NCBI GenBank assembly: GCA_030390025.1
Contig: CM059431.1
Coordinates: 120,902,001 to 120,966,000, forward strand
Reading direction: 5' to 3'
DNA from: Squalus acanthias
Taxonomy: Eukaryota
DNA: 64,000 nucleotides
The notes below the pieces were generated by a model. It worked only from the letters and a program-made list of their open reading frames with translations. It ran no database searches and was not told where the DNA came from. Shown here piece after piece: positions 36,440-52,432 of the stretch; position 1 is the stretch's first letter, and each line of letters opens with the position of its first letter. Both the position numbers and the translations under genes were made by a program.

Positions 36440-38210
36440 TTTGGACTGTTTTTTTTAATTTTATTGAAATGGTGGCTTGCTGCAATAGATGTGAAACGTT
36501 TTTTAAGTGTGTAGGGAGTGCTGCTGGATGCTTGCAAGGACTCGGATGGTAAATGAAGGCTTTTGAGAAGACAGAACATGCTGCGAATACTCAGCAGGTC
36601 ACGCAGCATCCGTGGAGAGAGAAACAGAGTACACATCTCAGGTCAACATGCTGCCTGACCAACTGAGTATTTCCAGCATTTTATGCTGTCAATTCACATT
36701 GACAGCATCTGTTTGCAGAGGGAAGAGGAAGACACAGAAGAGGAGGAAGCCGAAGAGGAATCAGACGGAAGAATGCATCCCAGACAGCCCCCTTGTGGCT
36801 GGGTTATCCGGGATGGAATCACCTGCCTGCGGTCCCACTGGCTGGGCAGGCTGCCTCTTCTTGTTGACCCACTGGCTGGGCAGGCTGCATTTCTTGGGTG
36901 TGTGAATGAGAAAGGCACAAGGGTGGAGTTGGGCTGACAGGAGGGCAGGAAAGCAAGAGGTGCATGCCAGAAGGGGGATAACGTACGAGGATACCCGCAT
37001 CTTGTATCCTTTCAGCCCCGCCGCTGGCCAAGGGCTCAACCATGCCCCTGCCAAGAATGGCCTGCATCGTCTCCTCCAAGGGGGTGAGGTGAGGCTAGGA
37101 ATGGGAGATGTGCCTTGTGATTGGTGTAGATTGTTGGTAGGTTAGTGATTGGGGGTTGTGCATTGAGCAGTGTGTGAGGCTCGTGTTGCAGTTGGTAAGA
37201 GACGGCTTTTGAAGATGCATTCACTGACCTTGACCAGTGGTCTGAGGTCAAGAAGCTTCTTTGGGCACTGGAGACAGGTGGTGGGGCAACACTACTGGCA
37301 GTGACAGCCTTGGTGATCTGGTCCCACATCATTCTTTCTGGAGAGCCTCCTGGCCCCTGTGGGTAGAGGGCCGCTCTTGCAGTGTTGACCTCTGCACAAA
37401 GCTGGAGTGCTGCATGTGAGACCTTCGGTGCCCCTTCCCTGGCTTGCTGAGGCATTTGTGTTAGTGCTGAGGCAGTTTTCCCATTTGTTGAGGTTGGGAA
37501 GTTTTTGGATGGGAAACCCAGAAGTAAGGGTTTCCTGGCTGTTCTGCAGAATTTAACTGCAGGGCGTCTTTTACATTTTTTCAGTAGGTGTCCTGGCTGT
37601 CTGTTGGGCGGGAAAGCAGCCGGGGAGTGACTGGCAGGCAAGTAGGAGATCCCGGGGGGGCTGGGGGGGATTGGGGGGAGGTGAGGAGTGTCGGAGATCG
37701 TGGGGGTGGGGGTAGTCAGAGATCGCAGGGGGTCAGAGATCGGGGGCTTCGGGGAGACAGAGAACAGGTTGGGGAGTCGGAGATCGAGTGTGGGGCGGGA
37801 GTCGGAGATCGAGGGGTGGTGGTGGAGGGGGAGTTGGAGATCGTGCAGGGAGAGTCGTAAATCTGGGGTTGTGTAAAGAGGTTAACTCATTGGACCGAGT
37901 GGAAACACTCCTGCTCCTCCTGGCCCACAAGCAGTGCTGTAAATGCACTTACCTCATGGATCTGGCCCTTCGCGCATCCTTTTACCACCCTGGTTTCCCA
38001 ATAAAAAAGCCTGTTAAAATAGAGGCACACAGCTTCCACTGACTGACTCGCATCCTGAGAGCGGATTGGTGGCCTACCCCCTGGCCCACCTTCCTTAAAA
38101 CTGGAAATGAGTGAGATTGAGGCGAGTTGGGGTCGTGTTTGAGATTTTTAAAAATTTACTTCCCTCCCACCCACAACCCACCCATCCTTGGTGTTAAACC
38201 TACCCACATG
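36440..38210 (-). mobile_element. Harbinger element remnant with Myb/SANT-like ORF and short GGAGATCG repeat
   Basis: Peptide APKVSHAALQL...MMWDQITKAVTASS; similar to 28480-29530. Confidence 0.6.
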
Positions 38211-38363
38211 GATTAAGTAAAGTCATCAATATTTGATAATAAACTGACGATAGTAACTGCACCTCGTTGTGTTATGGAATTTTCAACCCACACCACTACC
38301 TCTTCATCTCCCTCTATTCCTTCAAGATCCTCCTTAAAGCCCAACTCTTTGACCAAGCCCCTT

Positions 38364-40011
38364 TGTAAGGGATTCTGACCCTGCGTGTCTCGCAGCCTGT
38401 GAGATTCACGCGGCTCTGTGCAGCCTGTATGTCAGTGCGGGTCTAGGCCTTGTTGCCTGTTCTGGTCTCCAGCCAGTCTGGGAACACTAGACACACCTGT
38501 GAGTGGTTCGAATCACTCGCCCTTACGGTTCTAGACACTGGACTTAGATGCGAGAGCAGTAATGGAGATGAAACTCATGTAGACTCGGTTGAATGGTACG
38601 AAATGGAAAATCTTTATTGCATGATACTTAAGATTATGAAATACATGTCATAAGCACAGATTAATGACAGTACAATCTTACAAGCAGTTATATAGTCGAT
38701 CTTAGGGAAACGAGGAACGAACGGCACATAGTAAATAGGGGCACACATTACAAATATCCTTAATCCTTAAACCCTCCCCTATCAATATCTATCCTAAACT
38801 AGATTCGTAGGATTTCGAGACTCATGCTCACCACTCGTGATAACTCGGAGAAATTCCGAATAGCTGATCGGATGTTTTTCACCGCAGCACCCACGTGTCG
38901 GTCAGGAGATCTCCTGGTCCCACTTGTTTACTTGCTTCTGCTGCTCCGGCTAGCAGGCTGGAACGTCTGCTGTGATGAAGACCTGTGTTGGTTGGTTTAA
39001 CAGGTACTTTTCGAGCACAGTTGTCAATATCCTCGATACGATATGTTTCCTTGCAAGTTCGAAGAAGTCTTCCTGGCAAGGAAAACTTGGCTAATTCGAC
39101 CTACAGGCGCGGTCGGGATTTACTGACCGTGGCGATGGATATGGTCTTCCTCTCTTCTCATCTCATCTCATCTCATCTCATCTCATCTCGGGCCTTTGGT
39201 TCCGCTGCCAGTTACCAACATAGGTCTTCGTTACGCGACACGAGGTAGATCCGAACGGATCAGAAAGTTCAACAGTCCTTTTCAAAGAGGCAACAGGCAA
39301 GCAGGAGCCCAACTACGAGTACACAGGAGCAGCCACGAGGTTACGAATAAGAGCACAGGAGCAGCCACGATGATAAGAAAAAGATGGACGGTTTGGAGCC
39401 TGCAATTATAGTGCAAAATCTTCCGTTTCCCGCCCAACTATAATGTCCATTCTTTTGTTTAGGGTCTGGCGCTCAAATGTCTTGTATGGGTGATCTCCGT
39501 TCTTAATGGGTTTCGGGGCTACTCGTAAATGTCTGAGTACCTGTTAATATTTCTCCCATTGTTAAATCGGTCGGTGTTCTCCCTGGAGGGGTTGTGGGGC
39601 TTCCAAGTGTTTTGTATAACTACCTGCTAACGGCTCTCTCATCGTAGAGTCGTTGGGATTTTACATATTAATGTCTTTTGGATGGGCCCTTGATTACTCG
39701 GTACAATAGCTTTCATTTGTACCTGGGAGACCGATTTCAGTATTTATGTGTATACTGCAAACCCATAATGTCTCGTGTATTATCTTCACTGTGCTGAATC
39801 TTAATCGATCTTGCACAAATGTTTATTGGAACGCCATCTTGTCTGCCTGTTGAAAAGTCTAGAATGTTCTGTCACGAGGTGCGGCGGCCATTTTACAGGC
39901 TGCTTGTGTCCACTTTAAACCTGGCAGCATTCTGCTGAAATAAAAGCTGTTTGAACGAAACTCTGTGTTTTCTCCTTATTAATAAAATCGCGATATATTG
40001 CGAATTCTACA
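38364..40011 (-). repeat. 3' LTR (1648 bp)
   Basis: Differs from the other LTR at only 2 positions I could see (38753 A / 46485 G; 39097 C / 46829 T). Preceded on minus by a purine tract. Confidence 0.97.
38613..38618 (-). terminator. Candidate polyadenylation signal AATAAA in 3' LTR
   Basis: Plus strand tttatt, about 250 nt from the LTR end. Confidence 0.5.
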
Positions 40012-40022
40012 GTCCCTCCTGT
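40012..40022 (-). promoter_or_regulatory. Polypurine tract (plus-strand primer)
   Basis: Minus strand ACAGGAGGGAC lies immediately before the TGT of the 3' LTR. Confidence 0.7.
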
Positions 40023-40464
40023 TGATGCGAATAACTCCGCTTATCGTATCAAAAATCATAGTGGTGAGCAATATTATCTCGATTTCTCTCCGAATCCAGC
40101 AAATTAATCCCATAAATTTTAACCTAGCTAGGGTCTCTGTGTCGTCCTTATTTCCCAAGAAAATTACATTTTATATCACCGTAGGCATTATTTGCCCTTA
40201 AACTTACACCACTTGTTTTCCTTCCCGGCGTAACCAGGCCGATGTCTCTCGTATCACCTGTATATTCATCTTTTATTCAGGGAAAGGAAAAACAAAACTC
40301 AAAACCAAAACAATCAATTCTAACTGTAACACCATCACCAAAATAATCAACACCAACTCTTAAAACATGTCGAGTTCCCAACGTATTTACAATCTCTGAA
40401 AAATCATGATCGAGTACAAACTTCCGCGACGCACGTGGCGAGCGGGAGTGACGCCATTTTCCGA

Positions 40465-42816
40465 TTACACGGTGCTTTCATCGTGCACGCGCACGTAACG
40501 TTCTCGCCACTCTCCCGTGTTTTCATGCTTGGTGAGGCGCTTGTCTCTTTTACAATGTACGACCAATAGGTACACTACAATAAAAACTTGGCATACGACT
40601 AAAATGTGGGAGGCTATTCTGATCCATGAAGGCACTTCAATATTAGTGAACAGATTCCACCACGGTGGAACTACTATATCCAAAATGTCTGTTCCTATTT
40701 CGACAGTTTTCTGCTCTAATGTGTAAAAATGTTTCTGTGACACCGCGACGGCTTTCAGAAGCTTGGTGAGGTGTACAGGGAGAGGGGGAATGAGGTATCC
40801 GAAATGCGCGACGAATCGCTGCAAGTCGGTGAAATTCTCTTTTACTGTGAGATGAACAGTGGATGGTTCAGGGATTGGGATAATTCGCTGTTGTGCTACT
40901 TGAACTTCCGCCCTGGGTTTGAAACAGAAACTGCTGTCACTCACCGGACACCAGCTACGGTTTCCATGCTGGTAGTGTTGTGCTGCAGTGGTAACACAAT
41001 ATGTTCCACCCCCGATGTATGCTACCTGCGGAGGCACATGATCTTGTGCCATTGCCTCCATGGTGCAATTCATGGACTTGGCGCCAGCCGTTCTGAACCC
41101 GCACTGTGGTGTTAAAAAGGCATTCAAGTGCTGGGGACACAGTATTATGTGTGCTGCCCTGCCACGACAACCAGAGAGATCTGTACCTGTCATCGTTTGC
41201 TCCCAGCGGATGACGTAAGGTGGAACCGCTGCATAACGAATGTGGGCTCCCCCCTGAATGACACCAATGTTCTCTACCCGATACACCGGGGCGGGCTTTG
41301 CTGTGTCGCCCAAAACCGGCATGCGTAATACTATTCCCATAATAGTATGGTTTGAACGTCCGCAGTCCACGGGGACTGGGTAAGCTTCTGAAGCTAGCCT
41401 GAGCTGGCACGGACTTAATGCGTTCTGAAAAGGGTGGAGCGCCCGCAGGTGTTTGTTATTTATCCAGGACGGAACCAAACCTTGTTTTAAATCCTCCAAA
41501 TTACTGCGGCCCTCGCCCAGTAACCACGCCCCGTAAAGCACGCACACCTCGTTCTGCGCAGCTTGATCGGATGCATTCCGATCTTCCCTAATCAGGGCAT
41601 TTACCGTCTTTGCATGTTTCTCCAACTCTGCTATAATTTCCTTTAAATGGAGAGTCATGGCTTGGTCCTCGTGTAAACCCGACCCTACCACTTTATTCTC
41701 ATCTGTTAGAATGTCTTTTAATTGTGTCTTTAAACCATTAATCTGGGTCTGCAGCTCCACACTGTCTAGAGCGTTGACCACAGATGTACCCGTGTTAAAA
41801 GCGGTGAACGCATCGTTCACCAAACCCCTTCTTTGCCTCCCTGCTTGATTCAAAACTTCCTGTGGTGCGGTGTACAAACTTGTTTTATCAATTTCCGCGA
41901 AATCGAATTCGTAAAATTGTCTGAACATCTTGGTCAACAGGACCTGGTACAACTGTTCCGTCTTTTTGGGGCACCACTCTGGTAACCGCACCTCGGTGAG
42001 ATTTAAAATCACCGAGGCCACCGCGTAATGTACCCCCTGAAATAGTATCTGGTCTGTGGGGACCAGTACCAAACCATTCCCGGGTCCCTTACTAGTTTTA
42101 GGGCACCCTTCTTCCTCAGCTAGAACCACCGGAATCGTGGGCGGGGCTTTGCGTGGGCGCGTAATGAGCTCAGTGGCATTTACTGGGATCGGGGAGAATG
42201 GGGCTCCGCACCCCCTGGTGCTCGCATCCCACCTCATCCCCTGTCCGTTATCCTGCCATTGATTAATGAAAAATATGGAGATGCCTTTGGGGCAAACGTA
42301 CTTTGACCCCCACATACATACATAAATTCCCTCATCCGGTTCCCACCATTTGTCCCAACAGACTTTCACTTGTCCGTTTGTCCCCGTAATTGTCCGATGG
42401 GTATTATTACCCAGTCGTTCCCACTCGACCGAAGAGTTCCTCATAGTTTTGCTCAGCTTTCGCAGCCACCACCATCGGCTCAATGGGACCTTCCCACTAC
42501 AAGTCAAACAAATCCGTTTGCCGACGGTGACGCTGATCCTGGGTGCGATGATCCTTACTTTGGGGCACAGTAAAGAAGTCTCTTTGTAGGCAAACCCCGA
42601 TGTGCTAGAATACTCCGTTGAGTTCGTTCCCAGCCATCCTGGCCACCTTCCCTTGTGGAAATAGGTGCTGGTCTCCTCTGCCTCCCGTCTTCCGGTCCCA
42701 TCCACCGCGATGGGGGCCGTGTCCCCGGAACATCCAAACACCACGACATCCTTGGTGCGGCCTCGATAGGCCAATCCACATCCGATTGCCACGAGCAATA
42801 CTAGAATTCGTTCCAT
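40465..42816 (-). CDS. env: Envelope glycoprotein (783 aa from likely start MERILVLL): signal peptide, Ig-like domain, furin site RQRR, fusion peptide and heptad repeat, Cys-rich region, TM anchor
   Basis: Hydrophobic signal MERILVLLVAIGCGLA. RQRR|GLVND at 41827-41838. About 10 N-x-S/T sequons. TM IASHILVVCQVFIVVYLLVV and a YVRV tail motif. The frame is open further upstream to 42999. Confidence 0.9.
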   Translation of the reverse strand: MERILVLLVAIGCGLAYRGRTKDVVVFGCSGDTAPIAVDGTGRREAEETSTYFHKGRWPGWLGTNSTEYSSTSGFAYKETSLLCPKVRIIAPRISVTVGKRICLTCSGKVPLSRWWWLRKLSKTMRNSSVEWERLGNNTHRTITGTNGQVKVCWDKWWEPDEGIYVCMWGSKYVCPKGISIFFINQWQDNGQGMRWDASTRGCGAPFSPIPVNATELITRPRKAPPTIPVVLAEEEGCPKTSKGPGNGLVLVPTDQILFQGVHYAVASVILNLTEVRLPEWCPKKTEQLYQVLLTKMFRQFYEFDFAEIDKTSLYTAPQEVLNQAGRQRRGLVNDAFTAFNTGTSVVNALDSVELQTQINGLKTQLKDILTDENKVVGSGLHEDQAMTLHLKEIIAELEKHAKTVNALIREDRNASDQAAQNEVCVLYGAWLLGEGRSNLEDLKQGLVPSWINNKHLRALHPFQNALSPCQLRLASEAYPVPVDCGRSNHTIMGIVLRMPVLGDTAKPAPVYRVENIGVIQGGAHIRYAAVPPYVIRWEQTMTGTDLSGCRGRAAHIILCPQHLNAFLTPQCGFRTAGAKSMNCTMEAMAQDHVPPQVAYIGGGTYCVTTAAQHYQHGNRSWCPVSDSSFCFKPRAEVQVAQQRIIPIPEPSTVHLTVKENFTDLQRFVAHFGYLIPPLPVHLTKLLKAVAVSQKHFYTLEQKTVEIGTDILDIVVPPWWNLFTNIEVPSWIRIASHILVVCQVFIVVYLLVVHCKRDKRLTKHENTGEWRERYVRVHDESTV

Positions 42817-42828
42817 CCTTCCTTGGTT

Positions 42829-42856
42829 CCTGTGATCAGATAGAATGAGGTAGCCA
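42829..42856 (-). promoter_or_regulatory. Candidate splice acceptor for env mRNA
   Basis: Minus strand ctacctcattctatctgatcacag|gaacc ends 13 nt before the env signal-peptide ATG. Confidence 0.5.
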
Positions 42857-43105
42857 GCCTCGCAAGAGTCTCTGGCTTTTGTGAAGGGTGAGCGGGTCCC
42901 CTGACCTCGCCTCACGTAAACTTCCACGTTCGCTGTATAAACTTTAACTAAACCTAAATTTACAGCTCCCATCATTTTATCGTTTTCTGTTAAAAACACT
43001 ACAAACTTAACCTTATTAAAAAACTATAAACTTAACCTTGAACTATTAACTTAAAACTTAAAAACTAATAACTTTACAGTGCCGCCCGTTCTCAGGGCGG
43101 CCCCT

Positions 43106-44266
43106 TTAAATTCTGAGAAGGCTGCTGCGAGCTCTTCCCGACGGTGGGAGGGCACTGACCCTTCCCTCTGATCTGCCGCAGCCTGTTGCTGCACTGACCC
43201 TTCCCTCTGATCTGCCGCAGCCTGTTGCTGCTGCGATGTGGCCGGCCTGTATCTGGGTTATCTTAACCTTAACTCTACGCCTTGGGGCAGTCTGGGGACA
43301 TGACCACATCCTCCTGGGCTGGGGTTCTCTACTTGACCTACGGGGAGTTGCTATGGGCGGGGGTTCCGTGACGGACGGACCGGGTTCCGAGACTTCCATC
43401 GGGATGACCTGGGGTTCCACCACAGTCGCTGGCTCCGCCTCCGCTGACTCCGCCTCCCTAACCTCGGGGCTTGCAGTTTGTGGCTCCGCCCTGCTCGGCC
43501 CAGCAGGCGGCCCTTCACTCGTGATCTCTGCCTCCCCCAAGGACGGGACGTTCAAAGCGGGCGGCCACATCTCTGGGAGCCACACCGGTACTCTCTGTGC
43601 TCCCATAGCGGCTGGCCCTGCCTCCCCTAGCTCCTCCCTCCTGTCTTCGGGACCTGCAGCTCGTGTGTCCACCCTGTGTGGATCTCTACCTGCAGCCCCC
43701 GTCCCCTCCATATCGTAAAAGGGACCGTTCCTCCGAAACCACCCGTCGTCATCACTATCCTCATCTGCACTATCCTCATCTGACCCGGGTACCCTGAATT
43801 CTTCCTCATCTAACCCCCAATTCCAGAAAAACGCTGCATGATCGTCCGGGATGTCCCTTCCCCTGATGCAAGCTGCTATGCCTGCCTGTGTGCCTTGTGG
43901 TCCTACCTGGGGCTGTGCTTTCCCACTGGCGGGATTTACCCCTGTAGTTTTCCCTTGCGCACCTGGCTGGTACAGTTTGCATTGGTTTACATCCTCATAC
44001 TCCCGGCTTTTGGCTACCCTGTAGACTGCTTTTATCTCACTAAGCTGCGCTTCTAGCCTGAGCACGTCTAACTTTCCCATTGATCGGGCGTTCTCCTCCC
44101 GCAGGGCCTGCTCTCTAAGCTGCCCTTCCAGCCCATCTATTTTCCCTATTAAGCGGGCGTTCTCCTCCCGCAAGGCCTGCTCTTTTAACCTGGCCTCCTC
44201 ACCGCAGACCCCCTCCTGTGCGTGTCTTTTAAAAGGACACAGGTAGGCAGGCTGCGTGGGCTCTAG
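43106..44266 (-). CDS. ORF X: unknown ~386-codon frame in phase with the NC ORF after its TGA (coiled coil, acidic tract, Pro/Glu-rich tail)
   Basis: The 31 sense codons between the TGA at 44267-44269 and the listed ORF start at 44173 are open and in frame. No ATG near its 5' end. No DTG/DSG, YxDD or HHCC motifs. Confidence 0.65.
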   Translation of the reverse strand, partial: LEPTQPAYLCPFKRHAQEGVCGEEARLKEQALREENARLIGKIDGLEGQLREQALREENARSMGKLDVLRLEAQLSEIKAVYRVAKSREYEDVNQCKLYQPGAQGKTTGVNPASGKAQPQVGPQGTQAGIAACIRGRDIPDDHAAFFWNWGLDEEEFRVPGSDEDSADEDSDDDGWFRRNGPFYDMEGTGAAGRDPHRVDTRAAGPEDRREELGEAGPAAMGAQRVPVWLPEMWPPALNVPSLGEAEITSEGPPAGPSRAEPQTASPEVREAESAEAEPATVVEPQVIPMEVSEPGPSVTEPPPIATPRRSSREPQPRRMWSCPQTAPRRRVKVKITQIQAGHIAAATGCGRSEGRVSAATGCGRSEGRVSALPPSGRARSSLLRI

Positions 44267-44626
44267 TCATTGGGTACTATTAGACGGTCCTGCGGCACCT
44301 ACGGGGCCGGTTGCGACCGCCACCTGTCCACGTGCACTCAAGATTAGATTGCGCATGGCTCCTAACACTACTTCGACGTCGTCGGGAGGGGTGGGTGCCT
44401 TAGCTTCCTTAGCCGGGACAGGCGCCTGGGCTCGGACCGCGGGATTTTTATCCTTGGAATCCTTCCAAGGGTTCCTGCAATGCTTGCGCCAGTGCCCTGT
44501 CTTCCCACACCCGTAACAAGCATTACCTGCCTGTGGGGCGCGATTACCCTCCTGATGCCACTCTCTTTGATACGGGGCTGCGGGTCGTACCTCATGTACT
44601 CTTCCCTTAAGGGGACGTGTTGCCAT
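44267..44626 (-). CDS. gag: Gag C-terminal nucleocapsid portion with CCHC zinc knuckle, in +1 frame relative to upstream gag
   Basis: CYGCGKTGHWRKHC (C-X2-C-X4-H-X4-C) at 44477-44518. Overlaps the end of the gag ORF by 20 nt. Confidence 0.88.
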   Translation of the reverse strand: MATRPLKGRVHEVRPAAPYQREWHQEGNRAPQAGNACYGCGKTGHWRKHCRNPWKDSKDKNPAVRAQAPVPAKEAKAPTPPDDVEVVLGAMRNLILSARGQVAVATGPVGAAGPSNSTQ

Positions 44627-46091
44627 ACCCCTTATATTGCGATATCCTAACGTGAGTCAAGACCGACTCTTCCGTAATGTTGGGGTCATTGGGAATGTTG
44701 GGGTCATTGGGATCAAACCATGCTTTTGCCTGCTCTCTGACGGCTGGTAAACTGTTGGCTATTATGCACCTAAGCCAATGAGTTAAAGCTAAGCCTTCCA
44801 CATCTTCGCGCTCGGGCGCACCTGGACAGCTGCGCTCATATACTGGCCACAGCCTGTCGGCAAAAACCTTCGGGGGTTCTCCCTCCATCTGCACTGTCTG
44901 TCCCACTCTAGCAAACGGACCTTCATCGTTCGCCCCCAACACTTCCAGGACCTCATTCTTTAATTCCTCATAACTCTTGGTTCCCCTCTTGCTCTCGCCT
45001 GAGAGACACTGAAGGACCGAGCTGTCTAATGAGAACAGCAGCATTTTTGCTGTTTCCCCATCATCGCAGCCGTTAATGGCTGCGGCTTGCTCAACTTCTC
45101 TGAAATGTACGGAAGGGTCGTCTGACTCGGTCAGCTTCCGTACGTGATTTATCATAGCTCTCAGCTGATGTGAACTGTGAGGCAGCACCAGCTGTCCGAG
45201 GAGATCCCCCGGCTCTTCCCCACCGTTTCTGCTTGGACCCCTTTTAATACCCGTTACTGGATACAACGGTCCCTTTCCTACTTCTTTTTCAATGGGCTCT
45301 TTCGTTTCTTCCATTGCTTCCTCCCTTACCCAGGTTTCCGAATAGCTGGGTGGCGCGGAGGGCGCAGTGGCTACTACTTCTTCTGCTTTACTTGGTGGGG
45401 ATTTTTTAAACTTCTCACTTGCTAGCGGCTGGTGTGCTGACGGACTGATCAGGCACACCATGCCGTTCGCTTTGTTTACGGCCTTCTTGAGGTGCTCTAT
45501 CTCCCTTTGGCAGGCGCTATGGTCGGCTCCCTCAAACTTATCCTCAAGGGCCAACTTATATGCCGCCCTAACCCCCGTTAAGCTCTCTTCTTGAGTTCTT
45601 ATCTGGGCAGCTTGGCGGTTACATCTTTCCTTTAATCTGCTCTCATTCAACTTCGCCTCAGTGACCTGGCACTCGAGATAATCTATCCTTGTTTTAAGGT
45701 GACTGGAGACTGCCTGGCTTTCTTGGTGCAACTCATTTAAATTCTTAATGAGCACCTCCCCTCCAGAAACCTTCTCATCCATTTCTCCCTCTAAATGACT
45801 GATTCGAGCTACTAGCGCTGTAATGGTCTGGTTTGAAATCTGAACCTGCCTTTTGTAACACATAAGCCAGACTGCTTTCTCAAGTGTCTTTCTATGTTCT
45901 TTACTATCTGTCCACCTTTCGGCTGCCTCTAGCGGGCTTTTATCCGCTAACAATTCACTTATCCACTTCTTAGTTAGATTAACCTTTCCGAACACATAAT
46001 CTGCTATCTTTTCCTGCATAACATTTCGTACAGTCATTCCAAAGTCTAACACACTACCCTCTCGCTGCCAGTGTCCTGCCGCGGTCGCCAT
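44607..46091 (-). CDS. gag: Gag (494 aa; N-terminal domain, long coiled coil, PSAPPSY late-domain motif, capsid-like helical region)
   Basis: First ORF after the PBS, with its ATG overlapping the PBS. Heptad-rich segment; APSAPPSY at 45342-45362; a CCHC knuckle follows in the adjacent frame. Confidence 0.85.
   Translation of the reverse strand: MATAAGHWQREGSVLDFGMTVRNVMQEKIADYVFGKVNLTKKWISELLADKSPLEAAERWTDSKEHRKTLEKAVWLMCYKRQVQISNQTITALVARISHLEGEMDEKVSGGEVLIKNLNELHQESQAVSSHLKTRIDYLECQVTEAKLNESRLKERCNRQAAQIRTQEESLTGVRAAYKLALEDKFEGADHSACQREIEHLKKAVNKANGMVCLISPSAHQPLASEKFKKSPPSKAEEVVATAPSAPPSYSETWVREEAMEETKEPIEKEVGKGPLYPVTGIKRGPSRNGGEEPGDLLGQLVLPHSSHQLRAMINHVRKLTESDDPSVHFREVEQAAAINGCDDGETAKMLLFSLDSSVLQCLSGESKRGTKSYEELKNEVLEVLGANDEGPFARVGQTVQMEGEPPKVFADRLWPVYERSCPGAPEREDVEGLALTHWLRCIIANSLPAVREQAKAWFDPNDPNIPNDPNITEESVLTHVRISQYKGYGNTSP
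46073..46090 (-). promoter_or_regulatory. Primer-binding site complementary to tRNA-Arg(TCG) 3' end
   Basis: Minus strand TGGCGACCGCGGCAGGAC lies 5 nt after the 5' LTR. It is the complement of ...GTCCTGCCGCGGTCG-CCA, which I recall as the 3' end of vertebrate tRNA-Arg-TCG. Confidence 0.88.
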
Positions 46092-46095
46092 TTTC

Positions 46096-47743
46096 TGTAA
46101 GGGATTCTGACCCTGCGTGTCTCGCAGCCTGTGAGATTCACGCGGCTCTGTGCAGCCTGTATGTCAGTGCGGGTCTAGGCCTTGTTGCCTGTTCTGGTCT
46201 CCAGCCAGTCTGGGAACACTAGACACACCTGTGAGTGGTTCGAATCACTCGCCCTTACGGTTCTAGACACTGGACTTAGATGCGAGAGCAGTAATGGAGA
46301 TGAAACTCATGTAGACTCGGTTGAATGGTACGAAATGGAAAATCTTTATTGCATGATACTTAAGATTATGAAATACATGTCATAAGCACAGATTAATGAC
46401 AGTACAATCTTACAAGCAGTTATATAGTCGATCTTAGGGAAACGAGGAACGAACGGCACATAGTAAATAGGGGCACACATTACAGATATCCTTAATCCTT
46501 AAACCCTCCCCTATCAATATCTATCCTAAACTAGATTCGTAGGATTTCGAGACTCATGCTCACCACTCGTGATAACTCGGAGAAATTCCGAATAGCTGAT
46601 CGGATGTTTTTCACCGCAGCACCCACGTGTCGGTCAGGAGATCTCCTGGTCCCACTTGTTTACTTGCTTCTGCTGCTCCGGCTAGCAGGCTGGAACGTCT
46701 GCTGTGATGAAGACCTGTGTTGGTTGGTTTAACAGGTACTTTTCGAGCACAGTTGTCAATATCCTCGATACGATATGTTTCCTTGCAAGTTCGAAGAAGT
46801 CTTCCTGGCAAGGAAAACTTGGCTAATTTGACCTACAGGCGCGGTCGGGATTTACTGACCGTGGCGATGGATATGGTCTTCCTCTCTTCTCATCTCATCT
46901 CATCTCATCTCATCTCATCTCGGGCCTTTGGTTCCGCTGCCAGTTACCAACATAGGTCTTCGTTACGCGACACGAGGTAGATCCGAACGGATCAGAAAGT
47001 TCAACAGTCCTTTTCAAAGAGGCAACAGGCAAGCAGGAGCCCAACTACGAGTACACAGGAGCAGCCACGAGGTTACGAATAAGAGCACAGGAGCAGCCAC
47101 GATGATAAGAAAAAGATGGACGGTTTGGAGCCTGCAATTATAGTGCAAAATCTTCCGTTTCCCGCCCAACTATAATGTCCATTCTTTTGTTTAGGGTCTG
47201 GCGCTCAAATGTCTTGTATGGGTGATCTCCGTTCTTAATGGGTTTCGGGGCTACTCGTAAATGTCTGAGTACCTGTTAATATTTCTCCCATTGTTAAATC
47301 GGTCGGTGTTCTCCCTGGAGGGGTTGTGGGGCTTCCAAGTGTTTTGTATAACTACCTGCTAACGGCTCTCTCATCGTAGAGTCGTTGGGATTTTACATAT
47401 TAATGTCTTTTGGATGGGCCCTTGATTACTCGGTACAATAGCTTTCATTTGTACCTGGGAGACCGATTTCAGTATTTATGTGTATACTGCAAACCCATAA
47501 TGTCTCGTGTATTATCTTCACTGTGCTGAATCTTAATCGATCTTGCACAAATGTTTATTGGAACGCCATCTTGTCTGCCTGTTGAAAAGTCTAGAATGTT
47601 CTGTCACGAGGTGCGGCGGCCATTTTACAGGCTGCTTGTGTCCACTTTAAACCTGGCAGCATTCTGCTGAAATAAAAGCTGTTTGAACGAAACTCTGTGT
47701 TTTCTCCTTATTAATAAAATCGCGATATATTGCGAATTCTACA
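46096..47743 (-). repeat. 5' LTR (1648 bp)
   Basis: Direct repeat of 38364-40011 at offset 7732. On minus it reads TGTAGAA...CTTACA and is followed by GAAAA and the PBS. Confidence 0.97.
47130..47170 (-). promoter_or_regulatory. Candidate LTR promoter (GC/E2F-like box TGGGCGGGAAA plus TATAAT)
   Basis: Minus strand gttgggcgggaaacgg...gcactataattgca, followed about 25 nt later by a pyrimidine-rich start-like sequence. A second TATA candidate, TATATAA, lies near 46420. Confidence 0.4.
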
Positions 47744-48470
47744 CCTTCTAATATCTTCTTTGGTTGGTCACCAATTTTGTTATGGTTACGCCTTTGCAAA
47801 GCACATTGGGCCATTTTTCTATCTTAACGGCGCTATATAAATGCGAGGTGTTCTTGCTCTGGCGTGGTGGGAGGCTGGTTTGAGTACATAATTCACCACA
47901 TGGTAAACGAATGATTTCAGCTGTACTGCTGCAGAAGTATGCACATATCCAGAGAAGAGCACAATCTATCAATTGTTAAAAATCCAGGGACTTGTACATG
48001 GCTGGAGTCAAGAGTTCAACCATTTGTGCCAGCTGTGAAAATACTAATTCATGCTGCAATTAAGATAAATTGAGAGAAGTACTGAGAATTAAGACAGCAT
48101 AGAAAATTGGCACTTGAAAATACTTCCCAGTGATCTCTTGAACAAGGCCAACTGCAGCAAGCTGACCATCTGCTCCCATCAGTGGAATTGCTGCTGTGGA
48201 AGTTAAATTCTAATGGGGCACGAAGAGAAGGCTGTTCTCATCCTATCTGTAACTATCTCTTGTGAAAAATTAACCTCCCGCCCCCATGCCTTGAAATAGT
48301 GATTCCAGCAGAATGGCCCTAATATTTACTCAGGACGTGAAGAGAGCAGGCGGGGTGGGGCTGGGGGAAGATTTCCAGACAGGAAACCCAGAAGTAAAGA
48401 GTTTCACGGACATCCTGCTGAACTTTTTCAGAGATCAGGGTGGTGTGGGAGCTGGCAAACAGTGATAGAT

Positions 48471-51400
48471 GGAGTCGGAGATCGGGGGTGGAGGGGGAGA
48501 TCGGGGGTGAGTCGGAGATGGAGGGGGGATTCGGAGATCGAGGGGGGATTCGGAGACCGAGGGGGGAGTCGGAGATCGCGGGGGAGTCGGAGATCGGGGG
48601 GGAGTCGGAGATCGAGGGTGGCAGTCGGAGATCGAGGGTGGAGTCGGAGATCGAGGGTGGAGTCGGAGATCGAGGGTGGTGTCGGAGATCGAGGGTGGAG
48701 TCGGAGATCGATGGTGGAGTCGGAGATCGAGGGGGTGTCGGAGATCGGGGGGGTGTCAGAGAACGGGTAGGAGGGGGAGATCGGGGGTGGAGGGTGAGAT
48801 CGAGGGGCAGTCGGAGATCGGGGACAGTTGGAGATCGAGGGGCAGTCGGAGATCGGGGGAGGGGAGATCGAGGGGGGAGTCGGAGATCGAGGGGGGAGTC
48901 AGAGATCGGGGTGGAGGGGAGATCGAGGGGGGAGTCGGAGATCGAGGGGGGAGTCGGAGATCGAGGGGAGGAGTCGGAGATCGAGGCGGGAGTCGGAGAT
49001 CAGGGGGGAGTCGGAGATCGAGGGGGGAGATCGAGGGGGGTGTCGGAGATCGAGGGTGTAGTCGGAGATCGATGGTGGAGTCGAAGATCGAGGGGGGTGT
49101 CGGAGATCGGGGGGGTGTCAGAGATCGGGTAGGAGGGGGAGATCGAGGGTGAGATCGAGGGGCAGTCGGAGATCGAGGGGCAGTCGGAGATCGGGGACAG
49201 TTGGAGATCGAGGGGCAGTCGGAGATCGGGGGGAGGGGAGATCGCGGGGGGAGTCGGAGATCGAGGGTGGAGGGGGTGATCGAGGGTGGAGGGGGTGATC
49301 GAGGGGGGAGGGGGAGATCGAGGGGGGAGGGGGAGATCGTGGGGGGAGTCGGAGATCGGGGGGCTGTCGGAGATCGAGGGGAGGAGTCGGAGATCGAGTG
49401 GGAGAGTCGGAGATTGAGGGAGGAGTCGGAGATCGAGGGTGGAGTCGGAGATCGGGGGGGAGGGAGAGATCGGGTGGCTGTCGGATATCGAGGGTGGAAT
49501 CGGAGATCGAGGGGGGAGTTGGAGATCGAGGGGGGAGAGGGAGATCGGGGAGATTCGGAGATCGAGGGGAGAGGGGGAGATCGAGGGTGGAGTCGGAGAT
49601 CGGGGGGGGAGGGAGAGATCGGGTGGCTGTCGGATATCGAGGGTGGAATCGGAGATCGAGGGGGGAGTTGGAGATCGAGGGGGGAGAGGGAGATCGGGGA
49701 GATTCGGAGATCGAGGGGAGATCGGGGGGAGTCGGAGATCAAGGGGGGAGTCGGAGATCGAGGGGGGAGGGGGAGATCAAGGGGGGAAGGGGAGATCGGG
49801 GGGAAGTCGGAGATCGAGGGGAGATCGGGGGAAGTCGGAGATCAAGGGGGGAGTCGGAGATCGAGGGGGGAGGGGGAGATCGAGGGGGGAGTCGGAGATC
49901 GAGGGGGGAGGGGGAGATTGAGGGGGGAGGGGGAGATCGAGGGGGGAGTCGGAGACCGAGCGGGGAATCGGAGATCGAGGGGGGAGGGGGAGATCGAGGG
50001 GGAGGGGCAGATCGAGGGGGGAGTCGGAGATCGAGGGGGGAGTCGGAGATCGAGGGGGGAGTCGGAAAACGAGGGGTGAGGGGGAGATCGGGGGCGAGTT
50101 GGAGATTGAGGGGCGAGTCGGAGATTGAGGGGCGAGTCGGAGATCGAGGGGGGAGTCGGAGATCGAGGGTGGAGTCGGAGATTGAGGGGGGGAGTCGGAG
50201 ATCGAGGGTGGAGTCAGAGATCGAGGGGGGGAGTCGGAGATCGGGGGGGAATCGGAGATCGAGGGGGGGAGTCGGAGATCGGGGGGGAGGGAGAAATCGG
50301 GTGGCTGTCGGAGATTGAGGGTGGAATCGGAGATCGAGGGGGGTGTTGGAGATCGAGGGGGGAGGGGGAGATCGGGGGGCATCGGAGATCAAGGGGGGAG
50401 GGGGAGATCGAGGGTGGAGTCGGAGATCAGGGAGGAGGGGGAGATCGGGGGCTGTCGGAGATCGAGGGTGGAATCGGAGATCGAGGGGGGAGTTGGAGAT
50501 CGAGGGGGGAGAGGGAGATCGGGGGGATTCGGAGATCGAGGGGGGAGGGGGAGATCGGGGGGAGGGGAGATCGGGGGGAGTCGGAGATCGAGGGGGGAGG
50601 GGGAGATTGCGGGGGGTGAATCGGAGATCGAGGGGGGAAGGGGAGATAGAGGGGGGAGTCGGAGATTGAGGGGGGAGTCGGAGATCGAGGGGAGGAGTTG
50701 GAGATCGAGGGGGGAGGGGGAGATCGAGGATGGAGTCGGAGATCGAGGGGGGAGGGGGAGATCGAGGATGGAGTCGGAGATCGAGGGGGAAGGGGAGATC
50801 GAGGGGGGAGTCGGAGATCGAGGGGGGAGTCGGAGATCGAAGGGAGGAGTCGGAGATCGAGGGGGGGAGTCGGAGATTGAGGTGGGAGGCTGAGATCAAG
50901 GGGGGAGTCAGAGATTGGGGGCGAGTCGGAGATCGGGGGTGAGGGGGAGATCGAGGGGGGAGGGGTAGATTGGGGGGGAGTCGGAAATCGAGGGGGGAGG
51001 GGGAAATCGGGGGGGAGTCGGAGATCAAAGGGGGAGTCGGAGATCGAGGGGGGAGGGGGAGATCGAGGGAAGTCGGAGATCGGGGGGGAGTCAGAGATCT
51101 GGGGGGAGTCGGAGATCGAGGGGGGGAGTCGGAGATCGAGGGGGGGAGTCGGAGATCGAGGGGCGAGTCGGAGATCGAGGGGGGGAGTCGGAGATCGAGG
51201 GTGGAGGGGGAGATCGAGGGGAGTCGGAGATCGAGGGGTGATGGGGAGATCGAGGGCGGAGTTGGAGATCGGGGGGGAGTCGGAGATCGAGGGGGAAGTC
51301 GAAGATCGAGGGGGGAGGGGGAGATCGAGGGGGGAGGGGGAGATCGAGGGGGGAAGGGGAGATCGAGGGGGGAGTCGGAGGTCGAGGGGGCAGTCGGAGA

Positions 51401-52186
51401 TCGAGTGGGGAGTCGGAGATCGGGCGGGGGAGTCGGAGATTGGGGGGGCAGTCGGAGATCGGGGGGGAGTCGGAGATCGGGGGGAGAGGGGGAGATCAAG
51501 GGGGAGTCGGAGATTGAGGGGGAGTCGGAGATTGAGGGGGAGTCGGAGATCGAGGGGGAGTCGGAGATCGGGGGGAGTCGGAGATCGGGGGGGGAGTTGG
51601 AGATCGGGGACGGAGTCGGAGATCGAGGGGGGAGTCGGAGATCGGGGTTTGTCGGAGATCGAGGGGGTGTCGGAGATTTGTGGGCTGTCGGAGATCGGGG
51701 GGGAGTCGGAGATCGGGGGTGGAGGGGGAGTCGGAGATCGAGGGGGGAGTCGGAGATTTAGGGGGTTTGTCGGAGATCGAGGGGGGAGTCGGAGATCGAG
51801 GGGGGAGTCAGAGATCGAGGGGGGAGTCGGAGATAGTGGGGGGGAGTCGGAGATCGAGGGGGGAGTCGGAGATCGGGGTTTGTCGGAGATCGAGGGGGTG
51901 TCGGAGATTTGTGGGGTGTCGGAGATCGGGGGGGAGTCGGAGATCGTGGGTGGAGGGGGAGTCGGAGATCGAGGGGGGAGTCGGAGATTTAGGGGGTTTG
52001 TCGGAGATCGAGGTGGGAGTCGGAGATCGAGGGGGGAGTCAGAGATCGAGGGGGGAGTCGGAGATAGTGGGGGGGAGTCGGAGATCGAGGGGGGAGTCGG
52101 AGATAGTGGGGGGAGTCGGAGATCGAGGGGGGAGTCGGAGATTGGAGGGAAGTCGGAGATTGTGGGCGGAGTCGGAGATCGGGGGG
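48471..52186 (+). repeat. G-rich minisatellite, unit ~GGAGTCGGAGATCGAGGGG (variable G runs)
   Basis: Roughly 200 copies of the GAGATCG core; strongly strand-asymmetric. Confidence 0.97.
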
Positions 52187-52432
52187 TAGACAGTGTTCAG
52201 AGGTGGTTGGAAGAGTCGGAGATTGTGGACGGTAGGTGGAGTTCAGCTGGTTGTGCGAGGTGGGGGTGGGTCAACCAAACACAGGATGTGTTAAGAGGTT
52301 GGCTTTTTGAGCTTCAGGAAACACTCCCGCTCCTCCTGCCCCATAAGCTACTTAACTCATCGAGCTGGGCTTTCTTCTTTTACCTGCTGTGCTTCCCAAG
52401 CCCCGGGAAACCCGGCCTCCTTGGGTTAAAAA

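Follow-up and report, generated by a model that had tools for sequence, protein, structure and literature searches.

A paramyxovirus F-like envelope protein of a young endogenous retrovirus in Squalus acanthias has an N-terminal extension with a probable immunoglobulin-like core

How does a retroviral envelope protein (Env) built like the fusion (F) protein of paramyxoviruses find its receptor without a partner attachment protein? Paramyxovirus F usually depends on a separate attachment protein, and the question is raised here by an env gene on the minus strand of a 64,000-nt stretch of the Squalus acanthias genome (contig CM059431.1, positions 120,902,001 to 120,966,000, called the window below). 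The gene belongs to a very young endogenous retrovirus in this cartilaginous-fish genome, the window copy of which has lost pol. The env frame comprises 844 codons and a stop (40465..42999); residue numbers are codons of this stop-to-stop frame, and coordinates are those of the window. The reading that we favor, with a probability of about 0.6, is that the product is an F-fold Env with an N-terminal extension, the core of which is most likely an immunoglobulin (Ig)-like V/I sandwich that would serve as the receptor-binding head. Such a head, if true, would be a concrete, testable answer to the question, and would show a class I fusion protein assembled from modules.

By its predicted structure, the protein is a class I fusion glycoprotein in which residues 306-712 (40864..42084) adopt the F fold of paramyxo- and pneumoviruses. 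An AlphaFold model of the ectodomain (residues 78-790, 56-row alignment) had a mean predicted local distance difference test score (pLDDT) of 61, with values of 74-98 over model positions 221-290 and 401-630. Foldseek comparison of this model with the PDB returned 233 matches at E ≤ 0.001; the 50 listed were all paramyxo- or pneumovirus F, headed by that of parainfluenza virus 5 (PIV5; 4.5e-11). The alignment starts at model position 229, that is, residue 306, and extends from the mature N-terminus of F to the end of its head, with sequence identities of 6-15%. Among viral predicted structures, the top matches were arthropod-virus glycoproteins, two walleye epsilonretrovirus Envs, baculovirus F and paramyxovirus F. 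The furin-type cleavage motif RQRR (residues 388-391, 41827..41838) falls in a column that reads R-x-[KR]-R in most covering relatives, one having RKLK instead, and directly precedes the hydrophobic GLVNDAFTAFNTGTSVVNAL / GLVNDAFTAFNTG..., part of a fusion-peptide-like stretch, GLVNDAFTAFNTGTSVVNALDSV, that is conserved in relatives (residues 392-414, 41758..41826). Long helices are predicted at model positions 375-428 and 663-696, and the only Kyte-Doolittle 19-residue windows with a mean above 1.6 span residues 791-818, around a transmembrane anchor at 792-816 (40552..40626). Cleavage site, fusion peptide, heptad helices and a single C-terminal anchor, as expected of class I fusion proteins, are thus all found, and the suggestion of a first-pass annotation of this DNA that the Ig-like region is fused in one chain to an F-type fusogen agrees with the structural match. 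Sequence comparison was less telling: neither PF00523 (Fusion_gly) nor PF12259 (Baculo_F) matched the window Env at E ≤ 1, no F chain was retrieved from the PDB by the full-length family profile, and one homologue (P0040) gave a weak Baculo_F match under the cut-off (E 0.0011). A further PDB search, with the profile of an alignment that included the chimeric annotation P0004, was useless, the chimera having drawn zinc-finger matches.

Because the F match is confined to residues 306-712, residues 80-305 (42085..42762), lying outside the F alignment, are an N-terminal addition to the surface (F2-like) subunit, about 225 extra residues without counterpart in solved F proteins in the structural alignment. 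They follow a probable signal peptide, M62-G80 (42760..42816), a hydrophobic stretch at which relatives likewise begin with a Met; M62 at 42816 is accordingly the probable start, the first ATG of the frame (codon 9) being at 42975. The Ig-like region had been placed immediately after the signal peptide, which is not so: the two are separated by a conserved segment, residues 81-145, about 65 residues long. The extension is an add-on that varies between lineages, because distant full-length Envs (from two sharks, two frogs and one further source) align only from residue ~282-296 and because in a coelacanth Env (P0045) the signal peptide is followed at once by the conserved C-P...G-L-V with which the F2-like core starts, with no extension. 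Paramyxovirus F has an Ig-like domain of its own, domain II; that the Ig-like region might be this domain is rejected, since the F alignment including domain II occupies residues 306-712. The core of gammaretroviral receptor-binding domains is also Ig-like, and the first-pass annotation's view of Ig domains as foreign to viral proteins of these kinds accordingly needs qualifying; the unusual feature of the window Env is that a domain with an Ig-superfamily (IgSF) sequence signature has been added at its N-terminus.

This signature is confirmed by translation. Minus-strand positions 42265-42564 encode residues 146-245 and read PKVRIIAPRISVTVGKRICLTCSG...RWWWLRK...DEGIYVC, including GKRICLTC; the probable V/I-type domain is drawn slightly differently, at residues ~150-246 (42262..42552). 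C167 and C228 stand 61 residues apart, W176-178 follow C167 by 9-11 residues, and C228 closes the motif D222-x-G-x-Y-x-C, so that B-strand Cys, C-strand Trp, F-strand Cys and D-x-G-x-Y-x-C all occur in the usual IgSF spacing. Further cysteines are found at 164, 214, 236 and elsewhere, and two N-glycan sequons fall in the C-D region. Although the pattern was defined only after the sequence had been seen, its full form (G..[VIL].[LIVM].C.{8,16}W.{30,70}D.G.Y.C) did not arise once when the Env sequence was shuffled 200,000 times; a relaxed form arose in 22 of 200,000, and in the six frames of the window, read without stops, it occurs once, at this locus. Comparison of seven domain pieces of the lineage (the window-type set) showed C164, C167, C214, C228, C236 and the tryptophans to be invariant in all seven, unlike D222.

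Comparisons beyond the motif lead to the same clan. Ig_3 is the only Pfam family matched by the window piece (15.6-16.1 bits, E 0.016-0.023), and it is matched by all seven window-type pieces (E 0.0015-0.59). A profile of the seven, compared with 177,635 different sequences of the PDB, had its best match in the CRTAM IgV domain, and 6 of the 10 matches listed were IgSF proteins. The CRTAM alignment pairs profile positions 12-103 with chain positions 7-97 of 101 (91 residues) with two small gaps, and in the CRTAM/nectin-like structures (PDB 4h5s and 3rbg) the whole V domain is aligned, including L-x-C, W and DEG-x-Y-x-C; whole-domain similarity to a solved Ig domain is present, marginally, at E values of 0.0085 for the best entry and 0.016 for the second, and the Env domain differs in having three extra cysteines and in being part of a viral fusion protein. 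Comparison by hhalign with a profile of 30 host Ig_3 exons from the same genome gave P = 0.0025, a score reached by 0 of 150 column shuffles, and the nearest ESM Atlas clusters (scores 0.88-0.91) are nearly all Ig families. In the ectodomain model as well as in an AlphaFold model of the N-terminal region (residues 75-300, 9 rows, mean pLDDT 43.7), strands are predicted at 154-157, 162-168, 177-182, 202-207, 210-216 and 222-229, to which the N-terminal model adds one at 240-250. Host Ig sequences had been kept out of the AlphaFold alignment, as they would lead the prediction, and the predicted strand order fits A', B, C, D, E, F and G.

Weaker signals of the same kind come from other Env lineages, in the N-termini of distant Envs of sharks and of one further source. 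The N-terminus of the homologue P0034 matches V-set (E 0.0015), Ig_3 (0.008) and I-set (0.019), and most of its 24 weak PDB matches are, by molecule name, IgSF V domains (TIGIT, CEACAM, CD8, SLAMF5). Another homologue, P0014, is named 'Ig-like domain-containing protein' in UniRef; the profile of its type gave P = 0.014 against host Ig domains (0 of 150 shuffles reaching the score), and its five weak PDB matches are all antibody V domains (E 0.15-1.2). Frog Env N-termini are equivocal as Ig-like sequences, their profile having given P = 0.003 against host Ig with 1 of 150 shuffles reaching the score.

The Ig part is, as judged from its sequence comparisons, a folded domain under purifying selection. 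Among 10 young copies, pN/pS (the ratio of nonsynonymous to synonymous differences per site) was 0.09 for the whole of env and 0.15 for the Ig part, with pN biased downwards because these copies were chosen as the best protein matches. Set against two older env lineages of the same genome, the Ig part is 56-66% identical at the amino-acid level, with pN of 0.21-0.24 and pS of 0.73-0.78, the latter saturated. Its conservation is lower than that of the F1-like part where a long comparison was possible (66% vs 82%, one lineage) and higher than that of the flanking pre-Ig segment and linker (44-56%).

Several observations weigh against the Ig-like reading, the selection bias just named among them. 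All Pfam Ig-clan models stay below their curated cut-offs (30 bits for Ig_3, which with 19.4 bits scores best), so the Pfam check proposed in the first-pass annotation found the expected family at scores all short of the threshold. The CRTAM match is marginal, and the hhalign probability against host Ig_3 exons is just 11.8%. The proposed check by AlphaFold and Foldseek similarly came out half-way: the strands are where expected, but pLDDT over the Ig region is 28-70 in the two models (10-residue blocks average 28-66 for the ectodomain and 31-62 for the N-terminal model), and the low-confidence N-terminal model had no Foldseek match at E ≤ 0.001, the best being 0.23; antibody chains are in any event dominant in the PDB. 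Because confidence over the region is low in both models, a beta-sandwich with its disulfide is not demonstrated. Further out, a Pfam Ig match is missing from six of seven P0014-type pieces (one has it) and from both frog pieces; the best PDB match of the frog-type profile is not an Ig protein. The lineage profiles resemble one another only weakly (hhalign P 0.025-0.12), for which reason a single origin of the N-terminal modules is not established.

Could the stretch, then, be a disulfide-rich beta domain of some other fold, in which C...W...DxGxYxC is convergent or accidental, and which may still bind a receptor? The sub-threshold Pfam scores, the low pLDDT and the empty Foldseek result would all suit such a domain, as would the extra cysteines 164, 214 and 236 together with a W-rich DKWW motif, unusual for IgSF, and the P0013-type relatives, in which a Cys-rich N-terminus has ICFTC and no other Ig feature. 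It would leave to chance, however, that five different methods point to the Ig clan alone, that the CRTAM alignment spans strands A' to G, and that predicted strands sit at Ig strand positions; we regard this alternative as rather improbable. The claim of an Ig domain in the Env stands to the extent that all profile signals point to the Ig clan, and falls short in that all of them lie under curated thresholds and AlphaFold confidence is low. On balance, we consider it rather probable that residues ~150-246 have an Ig fold.

Let us assume that they do. The Ig-like beta-sandwich would be pinned by a putative C167-C228 disulfide packed on W176-178, and the cleaved surface subunit would carry it at the membrane-distal N-terminus, where it could bind a cell-surface partner. 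Such binding might then release the F-like refolding, one Env perhaps replacing the attachment protein that most paramyxoviruses need. The role of receptor-binding head is our best inference for the module because the retrovirus has one env and no separate attachment protein. The partner may be a host IgSF adhesion molecule, in the manner of the mutual binding of V domains within the nectin/CRTAM group; the CRTAM/TIGIT-type resemblance suggests V-to-V binding of this kind, though this is speculation. A still broader scenario, which we put forward tentatively and would not ourselves bet on, is that a group of vertebrate retroviruses (of sharks, rays and perhaps frogs) has set a nectin/CRTAM-like IgV domain on the N-terminus of an F-type fusogen, combining attachment and fusion in a single chain, and that its env-dependent reinfection of a cartilaginous fish until very recently produced the dozens of open env copies, the near-identical long terminal repeats (LTRs) and the pN/pS of 0.09.

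The first-pass annotation had also allowed for an immune decoy, and the module might instead be a decoy, a shield or a mimic of a host ligand, with receptor binding located elsewhere in the Env. Large DNA viruses do use captured IgSF proteins as decoys; the conserved pre-Ig segment 81-145 could bind a receptor instead; and the 10 young copies differ from one another at no more than 2 of 110 Ig positions, unlike a fast-evolving receptor interface. A single-chain Env nevertheless needs attachment, which the F core alone does not provide in known relatives, and the domain occupies the N-terminal end of the surface subunit, which is where receptor-binding parts are located in class I fusion proteins. 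We think a decoy, shield or mimic function unlikely and keep to the receptor-binding head.

Where the module came from bears on its interpretation as a captured host domain. A phmmer search with the whole Env against 1.84 billion representative proteins gave 51 matches at E ≤ 0.001, with no host IgSF protein among them; all matches that reach over the Ig region include the pre-Ig segment specific to Env as well, and some are chimeric gene models in which zinc-finger or other host sequence has been joined on. The nearest host IgSF homologue, which the first-pass annotation had asked for, was thus not found in this search, the likeness to host Ig_3 exons being just generic (P = 0.0025 above). 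Because of the absence of a host IgSF protein from these matches, a recent capture with a recognizable donor is not supported. That this retroviral lineage recently captured a host IgSF exon would fit with a vertebrate IgV (that of CRTAM) as the best solved relative and with the extension-free coelacanth Env, from which it follows that the module was added at some time. Yet Envs of rays, sawshark and whale shark, and those of two further lineages of this genome, share a domain with these cysteines, and the two compared lineages already differ by the amino-acid distances given above, at saturated synonymous sites. We consider a recent capture very improbable, and the captured host domain of the first-pass annotation is not upheld as a recognizable capture; from these comparisons the module seems to be old and conserved within the virus group, and its ancient acquisition from a host or from another virus is possible.

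As to whether related Envs have or lack the domain, the answer is mixed: the same-cysteine domain in ray and shark Envs and the weaker Ig-like signals further out stand against its absence, with the whole extension, from the coelacanth Env. Named relatives of the Env come from skate, sawshark, whale shark and other sharks, and distant homologues also from amphibians and coelacanth; a second, word-indexed homologue search yielded merely a few extra fragments. Comparisons can be made between headless relatives and those that have, judging by sequence only, a Cys-rich or an Ig-like head. Within the 3.7-Gb genome, where the best 54 of 14,028 first-look candidates were scored, env is open in all 54 at 98-100% identity, the window's own copy being the 100% entry, so that there are at least 54 near-identical intact copies; youth and copy number together make this a good natural system for studying selection on env in an endogenous retrovirus. 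The genome also contains no fewer than three other env lineages built in the same way (loci L011-L022 and L023-L039). In one, 150 scored matches show 53-60% identity to the homologue P0012, and many of them contain stops; a copy of the L022 type has 73% identity to the window Env; and a P0014-like group has 39 matches.

F-like retroviral Envs are already known, in the lokiretroviruses, the Envs of which are related to F proteins of Mononegavirales (Wang and Han, 2020, PMC7947760, as far as its available text goes). According to the same text, lokiretrovirus Env shares with the window Env a signal peptide, an RXKR-type site, a fusion peptide, a coiled coil and an anchor, and the amphibians and coelacanth that supply distant homologues of the window Env are among its listed host groups; the words 'immunoglobulin', 'shark' and 'cartilaginous' are absent from the available text. 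Unlike in the lokiretrovirus comparison, the F relation of the window Env comes from predicted structure, without a PF00523 match, and the likeness drawn here is one of Env features and host groups. The F proteins of paramyxo- and pneumoviruses (PIV5, human parainfluenza virus 3, respiratory syncytial virus, henipaviruses) have the same fold as residues 306-712, are cleaved at a site ahead of the fusion peptide and have a single anchor; they lack the N-terminal extension of the window Env and usually come with a separate attachment protein. Two epsilonretrovirus Envs, those of walleye epidermal hyperplasia virus 1 and walleye dermal sarcoma virus (predicted structures from BFVD), ranked 3 and 12 among the viral predicted structures (E 8e-14 and 2e-11), and because of these ranks the F-like fold may also hold for epsilonretrovirus Env, although the walleye Envs, compared by predicted structure, are much longer (1,317 and 1,159 aa). 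The fold is shared as well with baculovirus F (Culex nigripalpus nucleopolyhedrovirus Ld130-like protein, E 5e-12) and with arli- and lispivirus glycoproteins (E 1e-13 to 7e-15); the baculovirus, arthropod-virus and errantivirus F-type glycoproteins belong to invertebrate hosts, unlike the window Env. A preprint on F-type Envs states that none of the vertebrate elements is homologous to the invertebrate ones and, in its available text, does not mention an Ig domain (10.1101/2023.10.26.564294). In the open-access text consulted, which included PMC7947760, PMC9040795, that preprint and PMC4422223, neither Ig-like N-terminal modules of F-like retroviral Envs nor F-type Envs of cartilaginous fishes were found to be described; the papers' supplements may bear on host range.

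That the env frame is retroviral, as the first-pass annotation had it, is shown by its surroundings. The provirus, on the minus strand, is 9,380 bp long (38364-47743), with an interior of 6,084 bp without pol. Its two LTRs of 1,648 bp (TG...CA) form a direct repeat, the 5' LTR at 46096..47743 and the 3' LTR at 38364..40011, with two mismatches (at 38753 and 39097), and are directly adjoined by the target-site duplication CCTT on the left (38360..38363) and on the right (47744..47747). Between the LTRs, in minus-strand order, lie an open gag frame of 494 aa from its ATG (44607..46091); a nucleocapsid part with a CCHC zinc knuckle (44267..44626; zf-CCHC, E 0.014), which in the window copy is in a frame other than that of gag; a stop; a 386-codon frame in the position of pol (43106..44266), with a coiled-coil-like N-terminal part and a pol-frame tail; and env. 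The 386-codon frame contains a shared junction motif, NQCKLYQPG (43961-43987), upstream of which seven of nine other copies compared have the C-terminal part of integrase; the remaining two (L004 and L006) share the pol-less arrangement of the window, from which it appears that the pol-less form was itself copied or duplicated. In one sister copy, gag and the zinc knuckle are in one frame, followed by a stop and then by pol in the same frame, as in epsilon- and gammaretroviruses, where gag and pol lie in one frame separated by a stop. The pol of this copy contains RVP, RVT_1, RT_RNaseH_2, RNase_H, Integrase_H2C2 and rve domains, and its best PDB relatives are the reverse transcriptase (RT) of xenotropic murine leukemia virus-related virus/murine leukemia virus (2e-68) and foamy virus protease-RT (6e-65), with about equal scores that do not discriminate between the two. 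LTRs, duplication and the order gag-pol-env are thus all found, pol being taken from the sister copy, and with LTRs, gag and env here and pol in sister copies the window holds a pol-deleted member of a true retroviral family.

A few further observations concern the provirus and its neighborhood. The coiled-coil-like first part of the 386-codon frame contains a 54-nt direct repeat (83% alike) at 44061-44183 and looks, by eye, like the part of gag that forms a coiled coil, a hint that it arose by recombination. The leader between the 5' LTR and gag is almost absent; at 46072-46095, the gag ATG overlaps TGGCGACCGCGGCAGGAC, which starts with TGG and occupies the position of a primer-binding site just inside the 5' LTR. 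Near-identical pieces of the provirus (40012-47743) occur in public sequencing runs filed under four organism labels; the contigs of the four runs are short pieces without a splice joint that inform neither on expression nor on the start of the env mRNA, and those over 42272-42729, including the Ig-coding part, differ by 1-6 letters. Just outside the provirus, an open frame of 281 codons on the minus strand (37036-37881) has no Pfam match at E ≤ 1. On the other side, a G-rich satellite of ~19-bp units (GGAGTCGGAGATCGAGGGG-like) at 48300-52400, with a GC content of 0.61-0.66 and a GC skew of 0.6-0.7, gives rise to many overlapping spurious open reading frames on both strands.

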